From contig DATCNH010000081.1 in the NCBI GenBank assembly GCA_036565345.1, forward strand, positions 2,118-66,117: 64,000 nucleotides of DNA. The letters run 5' to 3'. The translations under genes were made by a program, and so were the position numbers. Under the pieces are notes generated by a model. The model was not told the origin of the DNA. It worked only from the letters and a program-made list of their open reading frames with translations, and ran no database searches. Source of the stretch: Candidatus Limnocylindria bacterium (GTDB lineage Bacteria > Chloroflexota > Limnocylindria > P2-11E). Positions 36,247 to 45,536 of this stretch are shown in pieces. Position 1 is the first letter of the stretch. Each line of letters opens with the position of its first letter.

Positions 36247-37227
36247 TCAGCGCACGCGACGCACCACGAAATCGGCGATCGCGGAGAGCGCATCCCGTTC
36301 CGGTCGGTCCGGAAGCTGCTCCAGCGCCGCGCAGGCCGCGCGGTGGAAAGCCAGCGCGCGGTCTCGCGCCCGCTCGACACCTCCGGAAGCGCGGATCGTC
36401 CGCAGCAGGTCGCGGACTTCCGGCTCGGCCTTCCCCACGGCGACGATGCGTGCGGCCAGGTCGGCGTCGTTCCCGCTGGCTTCGACGGCGTAGATCATCG
36501 GCAGCGTCGGGGTGCCCTCGGCGAGATCCTGACCGACCGACTTGCCGAATTCGACCTCATCGCCCGCGACATCGAGGACATCGTCGGTGATCTGGAACGC
36601 CAACCCGAGATTGGTGCCGTAGGCCCCCAGGGCCGCGACATGCGCGGGATCGGCGCCGGCGAGGAGCGCGGCGCCCTGGCAGCAGGCCGCGTACAACGAC
36701 GCGGTCTTGAGCTCGATCCGTTCGAAGTACGCGGCCTCGGTCGGTAGCGAACGGGTCGCCGTCACCTCGGTGAGCTCGCCGTCGCAGAGCGCGAACACGG
36801 TCTGCGCGACGATGGCGATGACCGCCGGATCGGGGAGCACCGCCGCCAGCGCGTAGGCCTTGGCGAACAGGTAGTCGCCGACGATGATCGCCACATCGTC
36901 GCTCCAGGTGACATTGACGGTCGCGATGTTCCGCCGCAGCTCGGCCCGGTCGACGATGTCGTCATGGACCAGCGAGGCGGTATGCACCAGCTCGAGCGAC
37001 TGCGCGAGATTGATGACGATCTCGCGGTCGTGCGCGGTGCCGAATCGCGCCGCGAGGAACACGAGCGTCGGCCGGAGGAGCTTGCCCGGAGATCCGAAGA
37101 GGTGCTGCACCGCGGCGGCAAAGGTCGGATGACCGCCGCGGCCGACGTCGAGCAGCCGCCGCTGCAGCTCTTCGAGCTCGCGTTCGACGGGGGCGTAGAA
37201 CGACTGGTCCGCAGGTGGCGCATGCAC
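36247..37227 (-). CDS. trans-polyprenyl diphosphate synthase (IspA/IdsA family)
   Basis: FARM (LVHDDIVD) and SARM (FQITDDVLD) motifs. The most plausible start is GTG 37225-37227 (MHAPPADQSFYAPVERELEEL...), which lies at the 3' boundary of the upstream group II intron. No canonical start exists further downstream before the conserved GK..RP helix. Confidence 0.7.
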   Translation of the reverse strand: MHAPPADQSFYAPVERELEELQRRLLDVGRGGHPTFAAAVQHLFGSPGKLLRPTLVFLAARFGTAHDREIVINLAQSLELVHTASLVHDDIVDRAELRRNIATVNVTWSDDVAIIVGDYLFAKAYALAAVLPDPAVIAIVAQTVFALCDGELTEVTATRSLPTEAAYFERIELKTASLYAACCQGAALLAGADPAHVAALGAYGTNLGLAFQITDDVLDVAGDEVEFGKSVGQDLAEGTPTLPMIYAVEASGNDADLAARIVAVGKAEPEVRDLLRTIRASGGVERARDRALAFHRAACAALEQLPDRPERDALSAIADFVVRRVR

Positions 37228-39187
37228 TGGTAGGTCAGTGGCGCGGTATCGCACGAAGGCGACCCGTTTCCACTGACCCCCTTTCAAACCGGACGTGCGG
37301 TGTTCCCGCATCCGGCTTAGCGATGGCCTTCTCGTGCAGCACTGACGGCTTCGGGTAGCGAACCGTCCCACGCAACCGGTGCAGGCCTTGGCCCCAAAAC
37401 CACTCCTGGGTCCACTGGGCAGCGCGACCGGCTCGGAGGTTGCGCCCGGCTCGCCGCACGAGGAAGCGGCGTAGCCGAGTACTCACGTAGCGGTCGATGT
37501 CCAGGAACTTGCGAGCGGCGTTGCCGCTGCGGAAGTACTCGCCCCAGCCGCGGAGCACCGGGTTGAGTCGCTCGATCAGGACGCGGACGTCCTTCACCCC
37601 GCTGGCCCGTGGATCGGTGAGCTCATGCACCCGTCGGCGGACTCGTCGCATGCTTCGCGGCGAGGGCCAGCGCTGCAGGTAGTAGCGGCGATAGCCGCGT
37701 ACAAGAAGCTTTCCCGAGACGCGCTTGCGCAGGTAGTGACCGAGGAACTCGAACCCTGCTTGCCCGTGGCTCAGTTGGAGGGTCCGCGTCTTCTCCGGGT
37801 GGAGCTGCAGTCGCAGCCGGTCGAGGATGACCCGCACCCTCCGCTCGGCCTCAGCCAGCGCTTCGGGTGATCGGGTGAGCACCACGAAGTCGTCGGCGTA
37901 TCGGACGAGTGTTCCAAGCTGCGCGCAGCGCCGCTCCCAGACCAGATCGAGCCGGTGCAGGTAGATGTTGGCCAGCAACGGGGAGATCACCCCGCCCTGG
38001 GGAACGCCCGCGACGGTCTCGCGGAGCTGTCCGTTCACCAGCACCCCTGCACCCAGCCACCGGCGAATGAGCTTGAGCACCTTGCGGTCGCTGATCCGCG
38101 TTGCCACCAGCACCATCAGGCACTCGTGGTCGAGCGAGCCGAAGAAGTCGGCCAGATCGGCGTCGAGGACGTACTCGGCACCGTCATTCGCCGCTTCGCG
38201 GATCGCTTCGAGCGCGTGGACGGCGGAGCGCTTGGGCCGGTAGCCGTACGAGGACCGACAGAAGTCGGCCTCGAAGATCGGCTCGAGCACCAGCTTGGCC
38301 GCCATCTGCGCGATGCGATCTTTGACCGTGGGGATGCCCAGGGGGCGCATGCCACCGGCCGGTTTGGGGATCTGCCGCCTCAGTACGGGAGACGGTCGGT
38401 ACCTGCCAGAGCGGAGCTCATCCGCCAACTCCTCCAGGAGCCGCGCGATGCCGTACCCCTCCGCCACCGCAAGCGTCACGCTATCGACGCCCGCAGCACC
38501 GTGATTGCGCCGGACGCGCTGCCATGCCTCCTGCAGGATGTCAGGCCTGCAGATGCGGTCGAAGAGGGCATGGAAACGACGACCCGGTTGTCGCTTCGCT
38601 GCGACGAAGAGCGCGCGCTGGAGGCGACGGACGTTGTCGCTGGGAGCGATCCCCGCGGGGTGGTTGGGTCCGGAGGACCGGACCATGCCCGCGCCCGTAC
38701 CGTTCGCGCGCGCGTGACCAAAGTGAGGGCCCTTCCCTCCGGACAGGTTCTGTTGCCTGCCCATCGTCGGTACTACGACCCCCTCGGACTCCCGCTGCGC
38801 ACCGCTCGACTTCGCCATCGGCTTATACGTGCGGTCCTGCCCTGACCAAGGCGGCGCAGACGGGTCTCTCCTGTTCCGCATCGAACCTTGTGCGCGTGCC
38901 GTTCCCTCTACCCCGGGGAGACCCACGGCGCCGTTTCCGGACGGGTGCGCCGCGGACGTGGCCTTCGCCGTGACGTGCGCGGCTCGGCTCTCCCATTGTT
39001 TCTTTGACGAGGCGGCAGGATTCACTTCATGTTGCGGCCCGCGCGCTTGCTCCCTCCAAAGAGGCTCTTGACGCCCCGCTCGGACGACAGACCTCTCGGT
39101 CTGCGTCTGGGGCCTGCTACCAGGCGTTCCGGTACTTACCTGCGCGGGACCTCCACCCGCTGGCTCGATGCAGCTTCCAGGACGCAC
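37222..39187 (-). mobile_element. complete group II intron (~1.97 kb) with internal RT/maturase ORF
   Basis: 5' end GTGCG (revcomp of 39183-39187). Domain V recognisable at about 37285-37319 (AAGCCGGAUGCGGGAACACCGCACGUCCGGUUU, with AGC triad and GAAC loop). A domain VI-like stem GGGGUCAGUGG...CCACUGACC-UA-CC with a bulged A follows. The intron-encoded protein ORF sits in domain IV. Boundaries are +/- about 5 nt. Confidence 0.8.
37235..38686 (-). CDS. group II intron-encoded reverse transcriptase/maturase (no endonuclease domain visible)
   Basis: N-terminal RRLQRALFVAAKRQPGRRFHALFDRICRPDIL..WQRVRRNHGAAGVD, RT blocks 1-7 with YADDFVV, and a maturase X domain. No Cys/His HNH module. Start taken at ATG 38684-38686; the track ORF is extended through domains I-III. 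Confidence 0.85.
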   Translation of the reverse strand: MVRSSGPNHPAGIAPSDNVRRLQRALFVAAKRQPGRRFHALFDRICRPDILQEAWQRVRRNHGAAGVDSVTLAVAEGYGIARLLEELADELRSGRYRPSPVLRRQIPKPAGGMRPLGIPTVKDRIAQMAAKLVLEPIFEADFCRSSYGYRPKRSAVHALEAIREAANDGAEYVLDADLADFFGSLDHECLMVLVATRISDRKVLKLIRRWLGAGVLVNGQLRETVAGVPQGGVISPLLANIYLHRLDLVWERRCAQLGTLVRYADDFVVLTRSPEALAEAERRVRVILDRLRLQLHPEKTRTLQLSHGQAGFEFLGHYLRKRVSGKLLVRGYRRYYLQRWPSPRSMRRVRRRVHELTDPRASGVKDVRVLIERLNPVLRGWGEYFRSGNAARKFLDIDRYVSTRLRRFLVRRAGRNLRAGRAAQWTQEWFWGQGLHRLRGTVRYPKPSVLHEKAIAKPDAGTPHVRFERGSVETGRLRAIPRH

Positions 39188-39215
39188 CACGCGTTTCAGT
39201 CTAGGAGCGCGGCGG

Positions 39216-41582
39216 TCACGGTCTCCTCGTCGGTTTTGGCACCGGCGTGGGTGCGGGTGGTGGCGTGACCGGGATGGCCCCCGGACTTCCTGACGGAACC
39301 GGCGTCACGCTCGGGCGGACCGGGGCGTAGCCGCAAAGGTTCCAATTGAACCGCCCGTAGTTGTGGAGCCCCGCGGCGGCCTCGCGACCCCAGCGGTCGA
39401 TGTCCTTCTGCCAATCGGGGAATGGCGTGGTGAGCCGGTAGCCGCAGGAGGTGTAGATCGCGCGGTCGTCCGTCGTCGGCTCGGTGCCCTGGACGAACTG
39501 CTCGGTCCAGCGGAAATTGGACGGGCAGTACGGGCCCGGCAGCCTGCCCGATCCGTTGCCGCCGGTGAGCGCCGGATTGACGCACACGACCCGATCGACG
39601 ATACCGGCGGGCCGCTTGAAGTCGTCCGGGGGCAGCCCACCGACGACCGTCTTCATGTAGTCGCGCCACAGGATGCCGGGACCGAGGGCCGACGAGATCC
39701 CGTACATCACCTCGTTGTTCGAGTTCCCCATCCAGACCGCGGTCAGCCGCTGCGGGGTGTAGCCGATCGCAAGCACGTCCTGGAGGTTGTCGGTCGTCCC
39801 GGTCTTCAGCGCCGCCGGGCGCCCGATGCTGGTGAACGGACCGAAGACGAAGGAGCCGCGCACCGGGTCGGTGTTGTCCTTCAGGATGTTCGTCATCACG
39901 TAGGCGTAGCGCTCGTCGAGTACCTGCTTGGTCTCGGGCTTCGAGTAGTCCTTCACGACCTTGCCGTCGCGGTCGACGATCTTCAGGATCATCGTCGGCT
40001 CGATCCGTCGGCCTCCGTTGGCGACGACCTGGTACGCGCTCGCCATCTCGATCAGCCGCATCTCGCCGGCGCCGATGCCGAAGGAGATCCCGAGCTGGGA
40101 TCGGTCCCAGTCACGCTGGATGCCGAGCTGATGGATCGTGTCGATGATCCCGTCGACGCCCACGATCCGGGCGACGTTCAGCGCCGGCAGGTTGAGCGAC
40201 TCGCGGAGCGACTGGCGGATCGTCGTCGGCCCATGCTGCTCCTTCGTCGCGTCTCGCGGCTTGTATTGCGTACCGTCGCCACTCGGCATGGTGAACTCGA
40301 TGTCGTTCAACACGGTCGCGGCGGTCATGTTCGCCTTCAGCATGCCGGCGAGGTAGGTGAACAGCTTGAACGTCGATCCCGGCTGGCGAAGCCCGATCCC
40401 CGCCACGTCGTAGTCGCCCTGGACCTGCGGCGATCGGTCGTAGTAGTCCTTGCTGCCGACGTAGGCGAGGACCTCCCCGGTCGTCGGATCCATGGTGATG
40501 AGCGCGGCGTTGTTCACGTTCGAGCTCTTCAGGTTGTTGACGTGATCCCGCACCTCTTTCTCGGCCAGCTGCTGCATGTTCCAGTCGAGGCTGGTGTAGA
40601 TGCGGTAGCCGCCACGATAGGCGGCCTTCTCGCCGAGGACATTGATGATCTGCTCGCGCACCCGGAAGGTGAAGTGCGGCGCGTAGAGCGATGTGCTGGC
40701 CGGTGTGACCTTGATCGGCTCGTTCTTCGCCGCAGCCGCTTGGGCATCGGTGATGTAGCCCTGGTCGACCATCGCGTCCAGCACCAGGACGCGCCGGGCG
40801 GCGGCGGCGGCCGGGTTCTGGATCGGGTCGTACTCCGAGGGCGCCTGGGGAAGACCGGCCAGGAGCGCCATCTGCCCGAGGGTCAGCTGGCGAAGGTCGC
40901 CGACCCCGAAGTACGTCTTCGCGGCGGCCTTCAGGCCGTACGCCTGGTTCCCGTAGAAGATCTGATTGAAGTACATCTCGATGATCTGCTGCTTGGTGAA
41001 CGTGCGCGTTGCCTCGATGGCGAGCATCGCCTCCTTGATCTTCCGAGTCAGGGTGGGCTCGTCACCGAGCAGCCGGGTCTTGATCAGCTGCTGGGTGATC
41101 GTCGATCCGCCCTGGGCGATCCCGCCCTTGGCGAGGTTCGCCTGCAGGGCGCGGGCGATGCCTCCGACGTCGATGCCGGGATTCGTCCAGAAGGAGTGAT
41201 CCTCGATCGCGACCGTGGCGTCCTGCATGAGCTGGGGAACGTCCGCCAGCGCGATGAGCTCGCGCCGCTCGTCCTCCAGGGTGTACAGCAGGTGCTCGCC
41301 CGACCGGTCATAGATGAACGTCGACAGCGGGACGGGGACGGTGGCGAGGTCGTGGGCCGCCGGAAGATCCGCTGCGAAGTAGCCGAGGAAGGCCGCCGCA
41401 GAGCTGCCGGCGAAGATGCCGAAGGTGATGAGGACCGCGGTGAGGATGCCGGCGACCGTCCCGAGCTTGGACGCGGGGGCGTACCGCCGGGACAGCCGTC
41501 CGCCCTTCCGGTGGGGAAAGCGGTAGCTGCGGTAGGCATGGCCGAGGCGAACGCTGCGGTGGGAGGTCGCCATGGTGTTCAC
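39216..41582 (-). CDS. ponA: class A penicillin-binding protein (PBP1A-type transglycosylase/transpeptidase)
   Basis: GT51 motifs (EDHSFWTNPGID, GGSTITQQLIK), SxxK (STFK), SxN, KTG(T), and a Pro-rich C-terminal tail. Confidence 0.9.
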   Translation of the reverse strand: MNTMATSHRSVRLGHAYRSYRFPHRKGGRLSRRYAPASKLGTVAGILTAVLITFGIFAGSSAAAFLGYFAADLPAAHDLATVPVPLSTFIYDRSGEHLLYTLEDERRELIALADVPQLMQDATVAIEDHSFWTNPGIDVGGIARALQANLAKGGIAQGGSTITQQLIKTRLLGDEPTLTRKIKEAMLAIEATRTFTKQQIIEMYFNQIFYGNQAYGLKAAAKTYFGVGDLRQLTLGQMALLAGLPQAPSEYDPIQNPAAAAARRVLVLDAMVDQGYITDAQAAAAKNEPIKVTPASTSLYAPHFTFRVREQIINVLGEKAAYRGGYRIYTSLDWNMQQLAEKEVRDHVNNLKSSNVNNAALITMDPTTGEVLAYVGSKDYYDRSPQVQGDYDVAGIGLRQPGSTFKLFTYLAGMLKANMTAATVLNDIEFTMPSGDGTQYKPRDATKEQHGPTTIRQSLRESLNLPALNVARIVGVDGIIDTIHQLGIQRDWDRSQLGISFGIGAGEMRLIEMASAYQVVANGGRRIEPTMILKIVDRDGKVVKDYSKPETKQVLDERYAYVMTNILKDNTDPVRGSFVFGPFTSIGRPAALKTGTTDNLQDVLAIGYTPQRLTAVWMGNSNNEVMYGISSALGPGILWRDYMKTVVGGLPPDDFKRPAGIVDRVVCVNPALTGGNGSGRLPGPYCPSNFRWTEQFVQGTEPTTDDRAIYTSCGYRLTTPFPDWQKDIDRWGREAAAGLHNYGRFNWNLCGYAPVRPSVTPVPSGSPGAIPVTPPPAPTPVPKPTRRP

Positions 41583-45443: not shown

Positions 45444-45464
45444 TCGATCGCGGATCTGGACGAG

Positions 45465-45536
45465 TACCCCCGCGCGGACTCGAACCGCGGCTTCAGGCTT
45501 CGGAGGCCTGCACTCTATCCACTGAGCTACGGGGGC
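45465..45536 (-). tRNA. tRNA-Arg (anticodon CCG)
   Basis: Cloverleaf by eye: acceptor GCCCCCG/CGGGGGU, D-arm GCTC-AGTGGATA-GAGT, anticodon stem CAGGC/GCCTG with loop CU-CCG-AA, T-arm CGCGG-TTCGAGT-CCGCG, discriminator A. CCA is not encoded. Confidence 0.8.

Follow-up and report, generated by a model that had tools for sequence, protein, structure and literature searches.

Group II introns of the IIB1 lineage have been recorded at the initiation and termination codons of housekeeping genes, including the stop-codon introns of groEL, and this lineage is defined by an insertion of 300-700 nt near the 5′ end of domain I (PMC12584367). Group IIC introns target intergenic DNA, where they are found downstream of terminator or attC hairpins (PMC1702495, PMC12584367), and IIC-attC introns supply outward promoters for the downstream gene (PMC3001079). 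The intron-encoded proteins (IEPs) of bacteria are normally specified by free-standing open reading frames (ORFs) that lie in the domain IV loop (PMC4424553), and exon-fused intron ORFs, described as "core creep", are found in organelles (PMC8393795). In C.te.I1 of Clostridium tetani, annotated downstream start codons lie within domains V and VI and are removed by splicing (PMC3919590). The present work concerns a group II intron on the reverse strand of a 64,000-nt stretch of DNA from Candidatus Limnocylindria bacterium (hereafter the window; G+C ~68%, with long spurious ORFs common), where it lies between a ponA-like gene and a gene for a polyprenyl diphosphate synthase.

In the public annotation the synthase starts at GTG 37227-37225, within the intron (NCBI protein P0001, 326 amino acids (aa), 100% identical, from a Candidatus Limnocylindria metagenome-assembled genome (MAG)). 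The initial annotation of this locus took the same GTG to be the only usable start codon and proposed that splicing removes it, which is the situation found in C.te.I1, where splicing fuses the upstream and downstream ORFs by means of a shifted 5′ splice site. The observation itself is borne out in part, in that the GTG is in frame with the synthase, is intronic and has a stop codon close by, but the splice site, the loss of the start codon and the dependence on intron retention that were built on it are largely refuted. Unlike in C.te.I1, exon 1 provides an independent start codon, and there is no fusion to ponA. The best overall explanation, to which we give a probability of about 80%, is that the intron belongs to a family that inserts at start codons, ends in RUG, carries an open frame over its whole length and would hand translation over to the host gene. 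The features on which this depends are as follows.

39188..39191, reverse strand: intron-binding site 1 (IBS1; CGUG), from the empty-site comparison and covariation with exon-binding site 1 (EBS1)
37225..39187, reverse strand: group II intron, 1,963 nt, from Rfam matches and the homology ends of diverged copies
37225..37227, reverse strand: intron-terminal GTG, the annotated synthase start, usable only on unspliced RNA
36247..37224, reverse strand: exon 2, polyprenyl (hepta- or solanesyl-type) diphosphate synthase, from a Pfam polyprenyl_synt match of 218 bits

Boundaries of the intron

Sequence comparison places the intron at 39187-37225, exactly between the native GTG (39190-39188) and the second codon of the synthase, CAT (37224-37222). 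In four intron-free orthologous loci (L001-L004), ponA and the synthase gene are adjacent, the synthase is 89-94% identical, and the sequence reads ...CCTAGACT-N6-7-GTG-CAG/AAG/CAC-GCG-CCT... The window reads ...CCTAGACTGAAACGC-GTG-(GTGCG...CCTACCAGTG)-CAT-GCG-CCA, which corresponds to the ancestral sequence interrupted by the intron, with a GTG at either junction. Because the window thus equals the empty site with an intron and an extra GTG added, CAT is codon 2 of the gene and not a part of the intron. The orthologous synthase proteins begin M-(Q/K/H/R)-APPAD, and three further contigs (L005-L007) have the arrangement of the window, which agrees with the synteny of the orthologues.

The same ends were obtained from copies of the intron at other positions. 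In four other copies at unrelated sites (~82% identical, 1,963-1,964 nt), homology stops exactly at GUGCG on one side and after the terminal (A/G)TG on the other. Among 11 copies with different flanks, 54 of the 55 cells of the EBS1-IBS1 and EBS3-IBS3 interactions are paired (98.2%), with 12 compensatory changes, while none of 500 shuffles matched the real pairing and controls in which the partner was slid were 22-66% paired. The combinations of EBS1 with the end of exon 1 were CACG:CGUG, CAUC:GAUG, CAUG:CAUG and CACU:GGUG; for EBS3, the nucleotide that opens exon 2 is a pairing partner in all copies tested (G:C in 3 and U:A in 8 of the 11 rows), and two further copies fit as well (L023, G:C; L026, U:A). 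The ambiguity of 3 nt that the GTG repeat creates is resolved because GUGCG is invariant, because of this covariation, and because there are copies in which exon 1 and the intron do not end in the same triplet (L014 and L015, with GTG in exon 1 and ATG at the end of the intron).

Ribozyme and intron-encoded protein

The structural elements of the ribozyme were located as follows.

38974..38977, reverse strand: EBS1 (CACG), in a hairpin loop, covarying with the four nucleotides that end exon 1
38908, reverse strand: EBS3 (G), after GGGGUA, pairing with the first nucleotide of exon 2
37285..37319, reverse strand: domain V hairpin with AGC triad and 2-nt bulge, from the Rfam alignment and the fold
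37229..37281, reverse strand: domain VI with bulged branch-point A 37231, from the fold

The intron begins with GUGCG (39187-39183), the canonical 5′ end of group II introns, and ends in ...CCUACCAGUG (37225). The Rfam model RF02003, which represents domains I to IV, matches at 39162-39027 with 81.4 bits against a cut-off of 49. Domains V and VI fold with -51.2 kcal/mol (z = -5.35), and the branch-point A is followed by 2 bp and then by a 4-nt tail, AGUG. The intron encodes a reverse transcriptase (RT)/maturase that matches TIGR04416 with 392.8 bits (cut-off 300), contains the RVT_1 and GIIM domains and a YADD motif, and has its conserved part from ATG 38818 onward.

In the hairpin GCCG-CGCACGUCA-CGGC, the loop opens with CG, and EBS1 is formed by the four loop nucleotides that come next; its pairing with IBS1 consists of four covarying pairs, sometimes 5-6. 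The last three nucleotides of IBS1, GTG 39190-39188, are at once the native start codon of the synthase and the end of exon 1. Taken across the copies, the covariation indicates that EBS1 (CAY-N) is the pairing partner of N-RUG, so that the targeting of start codons is encoded in the ribozyme itself. A different candidate for EBS1, CACGCG at 38898-38893, fits the window and fails in the other copies, and the loop CACG at 38977-38974 was taken instead. EBS2 was not found among the intron columns compared, none of which tracks the variable base of the upstream TAGNCT; this does not prove its absence.

Start codon of the synthase

The intronic GTG 37227-37225 is real and in frame with the synthase (GTG CAT GCG CCA CCT ..., that is, V/M-HAPPADQSFYAPVERELEEL), it forms the last three nucleotides of the intron, and the intron frame's stop codon, TGA 37237-37235, lies just upstream with 7 nt between them. 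Contrary to what had been proposed, it is not the sole usable start, since splicing places the exon-1 GTG (39190-39188) in frame before CAT. Further in-frame GTG and ATG codons occur upstream within the intron (ORF 36247..37371), and none of them is backed by homologues. The intron-free orthologous loci L001-L004, a comparison that the initial annotation had itself suggested, give GTG-CAN as the ancestral start.

Because the native GTG makes up the last three nucleotides of exon 1, exon ligation would restore the start codon rather than delete it: the ligated sequence reads GTG/CAT GCG, where the slash marks the junction, as in the ancestor, and the predicted junction is ...AAACGCGUG/CAUGCGCCACC. 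Exon 2 opens at codon 2, CAT 37224-37222, of which C37224 is IBS3, and ends with the stop codon 36249-36247; TIGR02749 and TIGR02748 align to the synthase from residue 8-9. Unspliced RNA carries an identical GTG-CAT frame, and both spliced and unspliced RNA would therefore encode the same 326-aa protein. The proposal that expression is tied to intron retention or to an intron-internal promoter is not supported either, because the spliced RNA keeps a start codon, and a consensus scan found no sigma-70 consensus promoter or terminator inside the intron. At this locus it would thus be tempting but mistaken to conclude from the intron-borne start codon that splicing inactivates the gene. A lone in-frame start codon beside a splice site would be unremarkable by chance, but ...CCUACCA(A/G)UG ends every copy that was found.

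Open reading frame across the intron

One further feature extends over nearly the whole element.

37235..39190, reverse strand: open frame of 651 codons, from the host GTG through domains I to III, the RT/maturase and domain V to TGA 37237-37235 in domain VI

This frame is the longest ORF in the intron of the window. Over the first 372 nt, which correspond to domains I to III, frame 0 is free of stop codons in 12 of 13 copies, and the other frames contain 0-6 stops, mostly 2-5. The lengths of the introns are mostly 1 mod 3, and two indels in domain I are of exactly 3 nt. The copies L013, L021 and L019, which have lost the ORF for the IEP, likewise stay in frame between the start codon of the host and the same stop region, and so does L031, which at 1,841 nt is 123 nt shorter than its full-length relatives. 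In a variant that is 1 nt longer (L009, L020, L031), the stop codon TGA overlaps the terminal ATG (AATGA).

More distant relatives have ORFs of 664-674 codons that begin at the exon ATG and contain 0 internal stops; in their 5′ part, each of the remaining frames has 3-8. Many proteins of the family in databases have been called with 620-672 aa and start with M-VR(R/P), which corresponds to a start codon followed by GUG-CGN, the 5′ end of the intron, and the predicted N-terminus of the fused IEP in the window is MVRPGSCIEPAGG. Other gene calls choose internal starts for the IEP and arrive at 509-527 aa.

Probable leaderless context of the insertion site

The native start codon is preceded by a sequence that resembles a promoter element.

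39198..39203, reverse strand: TAGACT, a hexamer resembling a -10 box, located 7 nt upstream of the native GTG, with a putative promoter function

This hexamer is kept in the intron-free loci L001, L002 and L004 although the spacer varies, and a TAGNCT-like box precedes the start codon with a spacing of 6-7 nt in 11 of 12 distinct upstream flanks. We infer from this geometry that TAGNCT is probably the -10 box of a leaderless mRNA. In the window, 16 sites conform to TANNNT-N6-7-RTG, and an ORF of at least 100 codons follows 15 of them; among these starts, those of ponA (785 aa), a 343-aa DNA polymerase III delta′ and a 368-aa glycosyltransferase agree with independent gene calls. These data suggest widespread leaderless transcription in this Limnocylindria genome. 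Starts of the form TANNNT-N6-7-ATG/GTG in the window include those at 41573, 34158, 33047, 31262, 42190, 45588 and 20202.

TAGNCT was also considered as IBS2. The apparent 6-bp match in the window, GGUCUG, is part of a hairpin stem and shows no covariation, and the spacing of the hexamer is not constant (6 or 7 nt); because no intron position covaries with its variable base, TAGNCT is probably not IBS2. The hexamer is more uniform (TAG..CT) at the intron sites than at the other candidate leaderless starts of the window, and some recognition of TAGNCT by the intron ribonucleoprotein may take place.

A family of start-codon introns

A pattern scan for domains V and VI in genome and metagenome collections identified 20 more loci. 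All copies found end in ...CCUACCA(A/G)UG, and the only variation, A or G, preserves a start codon in both forms. The 12 distinct exon-1 ends are ATG or GTG, with one ACG. Approximately 19 distinct exon-2 sequences continue from the RTG of the intron, most of which are recognizable N-termini of genes, and Pfam models align from residues 4-19 in 5 of the 10 downstream genes tested. The target genes include those for a cysteine desulfurase (M/KRVYLDHAATTPV), adenylate cyclase, cytochrome oxidase subunit II, an MFS transporter, an SLOG/LOG protein and methylmalonyl-CoA mutase.

The distant relatives, whose IEPs are 63-66% identical, have ATG/GUGCG at the 5′ junction, and in L037, L038 and L040, whose contigs include the 3′ end, this end reads ...CUACCAAUG/exon 2; one of them comes from a MAG labelled Anaeromyxobacteraceae. 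The same distant-relative intron is present at two sites, L037 and L038, at which the last 12 nucleotides of exon 1 are identical (GATGGGCCCATG). Introns of that clade may require a longer target, or one of the assemblies may be chimeric. ORF-less or shortened derivatives with intact ribozyme ends were found as well (L013, 805 nt; L021, 802 nt; L019, 829 nt; L014, 569 nt; L031, 1,841 nt).

Two loci, L008 (1209-3172) and L028, have ACG at the position of the exon-1 start codon, where their EBS1 (CAUG) predicts CAUG. Intron-free homologues of this site (L033, L035) have ATG or GTG followed by AGC-TAC-GAC, and the ORF downstream of the intron in L008 and L028 continues undisrupted over 265 codons or more. 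It may be the terminal ATG of the intron on which the host gene now depends.

The third nucleotide of EBS1 is associated with the antepenultimate nucleotide of the intron: CAC occurs with GUG in 4 and with AUG in 2 cases, and CAU occurs with AUG in 8 and with GUG in 0 (Fisher p ~0.015 in our own test, uncorrected for phylogeny). The combination of CAC with GUG is present in three sequence subgroups, as judged by inspection of shared domain I signatures.

Proposed mechanism

In the mechanism that we propose, the target genes would be transcribed without a leader, under the control of a -10 box that lies 6-7 nt upstream, and the 5′ exon would then be as short as 3 nt. The intron would borrow the host start codon, and its RT would be translated as an exon-fused product. 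Ribosomes that end in domain VI would reinitiate at the terminal RUG, and the host protein would then also be made from unspliced RNA. Initiation and pairing of the 5′ exon would be mutually exclusive, because the start codon itself is IBS1. A wider claim, for which we see somewhat less than an even chance, is that these introns form a family adapted to leaderless translation in Chloroflexota (Limnocylindria) and some other high-G+C lineages, which homes by means of the CAY-N EBS1, makes a host-start-fused RT, hands translation back through the terminal AUG or GUG, and is subject to competition between splicing and initiation.

Several observations weigh against the best overall explanation. 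The RF00029 match to domains V and VI (37320-37222) reaches 34.4 bits, which is under the gathering cut-off of 40, and the intron ends in UG instead of the usual AY (...A(A/G)UG in all copies). Ribosomes that cross domains I to III would unfold the ribozyme. One frame-0 stop is present in domain I of L010, and the frame is lost in L014. The gap between the stop codon and the terminal RUG is 7 nt in the clade of the window and 8 or 26 nt in distant relatives. L032 lacks a -10-like box. L009, L020 and L031 share one flank and not the other; these assemblies are probably chimeric across a multi-copy intron repeat, and flank-based conclusions from single contigs need caution. Finally, the boundaries and the translation model are derived from sequence comparison throughout.

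Alternative explanations

The alternative that survives best keeps the same boundaries and gives neither the terminal RUG nor the frame through domains I to III a role in translation. The RUG would be a feature of the ribozyme or of homing, such as a mimic of IBS1, the IEP would be translated from an ATG in domain IV, and splicing would be a precondition for expression of the host gene. The association between the third nucleotide of EBS1 and the antepenultimate nucleotide hints at such a link at the level of RNA, the gene callers that take internal starts for the IEP are in line with it, and it avoids the conflict between translation of domains I to III and folding of the ribozyme. We nevertheless consider it unlikely. 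Stop codons are missing in frame 0 only, and this holds in relatives down to 63% IEP identity; deletions and 3-nt indels keep the frame, and the stop is conserved near the RUG. Selection for pairing with EBS1 predicts that CAU with GUG, which allows a G-U pair, should be present and that CAC with AUG should be absent, and the opposite was observed. In L008, the ORF downstream of the intron is intact despite the ACG in exon 1.

It is much less probable that high G+C content and shared ancestry, rather than selection, produced the whole-intron frame. Long spurious ORFs are indeed common at this G+C content, and the copies are related by descent, but the other two frames of the same nucleotides hold mostly 2-8 stops, which differ between copies. 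Based on these stop densities, a rough Poisson estimate of the probability of zero stops is ~0.05 for the window, 0.03 for L037, 0.01 for L040 and 0.0015 for L036.

The model of the initial annotation, in which the only start codon of the synthase is intronic and is removed by splicing, so that expression requires unspliced RNA or an internal promoter, has very little left to recommend it. It placed the 3′ splice site at ...CCAGUGCAU/GCGCC (37222/37221) and the beginning of exon 2 at 37221, and it is favored by the intronic position of GTG 37227-37225, by the use of this GTG in the public annotation, and by the RF00029 alignment, which reaches 37222. That alignment overshoots the true 3′ end by 3 nt. 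The splice site lies at ...CCAGUG/CAUGCG (37225/37224), and exon 2 starts at 37224, according to the empty sites, the homology breakpoints, EBS3-IBS3 pairing and the geometry of domain VI, in which branch-point A 37231 is at the canonical -7 from 37225/37224 and would be at -10 with the site proposed earlier. When the covariation analysis was repeated with that exon-2 start, 63.6% of the cells were paired and 201 of 500 shuffles were equal, and sliding the partner by -3 brought the pairing to 100%. Exon 1 ends in a GTG that is in frame with exon 2, the empty sites show GTG-CAN to be ancestral, and the intron lacks a consensus promoter.

An insertion before the start codon, with an element that runs GUG-GUGCG...CCUACCA and with GTG 37227-37225 as the native start of exon 2, can practically be dismissed: the empty-site comparison is ambiguous by 3 nt because of the GTG repeat at both junctions, but the triplet before the invariant GUGCG varies (GTG, ATG, ACG) along with EBS1, EBS3 changes together with the nucleotide that follows the terminal RUG and not with the first nucleotide of the RUG, the two triplets differ in L014 and L015, and domain VI would be left with just 3 nt past the branch-point A.

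Other features of the window

The gene upstream of the intron was delimited as follows.

39216..41582, reverse strand: ponA-like class A penicillin-binding protein gene, from the ORF and the Pfam Transgly and Transpeptidase domains

Its stop codon is TGA 39218-39216, and the synthase-side GTG 39190-39188 lies 25 nt downstream. The ponA orthologues in the orthologous loci have been called with 785-786 aa, and the start of ponA is probably ATG 41573, which is preceded by TACGGT-N7, rather than GTG 41582. In L006 (3038-4087; GCA_036741455.1), which represents the same locus, the synthase has been called as two pieces of 250 and 83 aa, and the copy in the window is intact; the split call suggests a frameshift or an assembly error in L006. 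The only other feature found in the window by Rfam and ARAGORN is a tRNA-Arg (CCG) at 45464-45536 on the reverse strand; a match to IRES_Bip in the Rfam scan was regarded as spurious.

Comparison with known systems

The intron described here would allow a retroelement to reside in housekeeping genes at almost no cost, given that the same host protein is encoded whether the RNA is spliced or unspliced. In public records the IEP and the synthase have each been called as an ordinary separate gene. Gene callers see an intact gene and a separate RT gene, and such introns consequently escape annotation. No description of this intron family was found in the open-access literature searched. The IIB1 start- and stop-codon lineage goes back to Michel et al. 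2007 (Biochimie 89:542), which lies outside that scope, so the novelty of the family is provisional.

The present intron is similar to the IIB1 lineage in that the translation signals of housekeeping genes are colonized and the host ORF is left intact. In the groEL introns the first G turns UAA into UAG, whereas here the last three nucleotides of the intron recreate a start codon. In contrast to the IIB1 lineage, there is no 5′-subterminal insertion in domain I: domains I to III span ~370 nt, and the Rfam model for domains I to IV aligns from intron nucleotide 26. The lineages also differ in that IBS1 is ~4 bp here, EBS2 was not found in the columns compared, and the IEP is closest to IIC-type RTs, as the best matches to solved structures are IIC RTs (7uim, 207 bits; 6ar1, 199 bits).

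The intron shares with group IIC (B.h.I1, O.i.I1, GsI-IIC and IIC-attC) a compact ribozyme, the EBS3-IBS3 interaction and an IEP without an endonuclease domain, and may share with it a very short IBS1. It differs from group IIC in that it targets start codons and has no consistent upstream hairpin. A terminator-like site was not found at the locus, and inspection of 12 exon-1 sequences revealed no consistent hairpin; a hairpin of the IIC type is seen in three exon-1 sequences and is missing in the others. The targeting rule of four nucleotides (N-RUG) plus one more could aid the design of targetrons directed at start codons.

Like the exon-fused ORFs of organellar introns, the ORF 39190..37235 begins in the exon, at the host GTG. 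The organellar ORFs are joined to long exons, whereas here the host would contribute a start codon only. If the proposed mechanism is correct, the way in which leaderless translation, reinitiation and ribozyme folding act on one another could be tested directly, and these introns would be a bacterial counterpart to the organellar exon-fused ORFs, in which splicing and initiation compete for the same four nucleotides.

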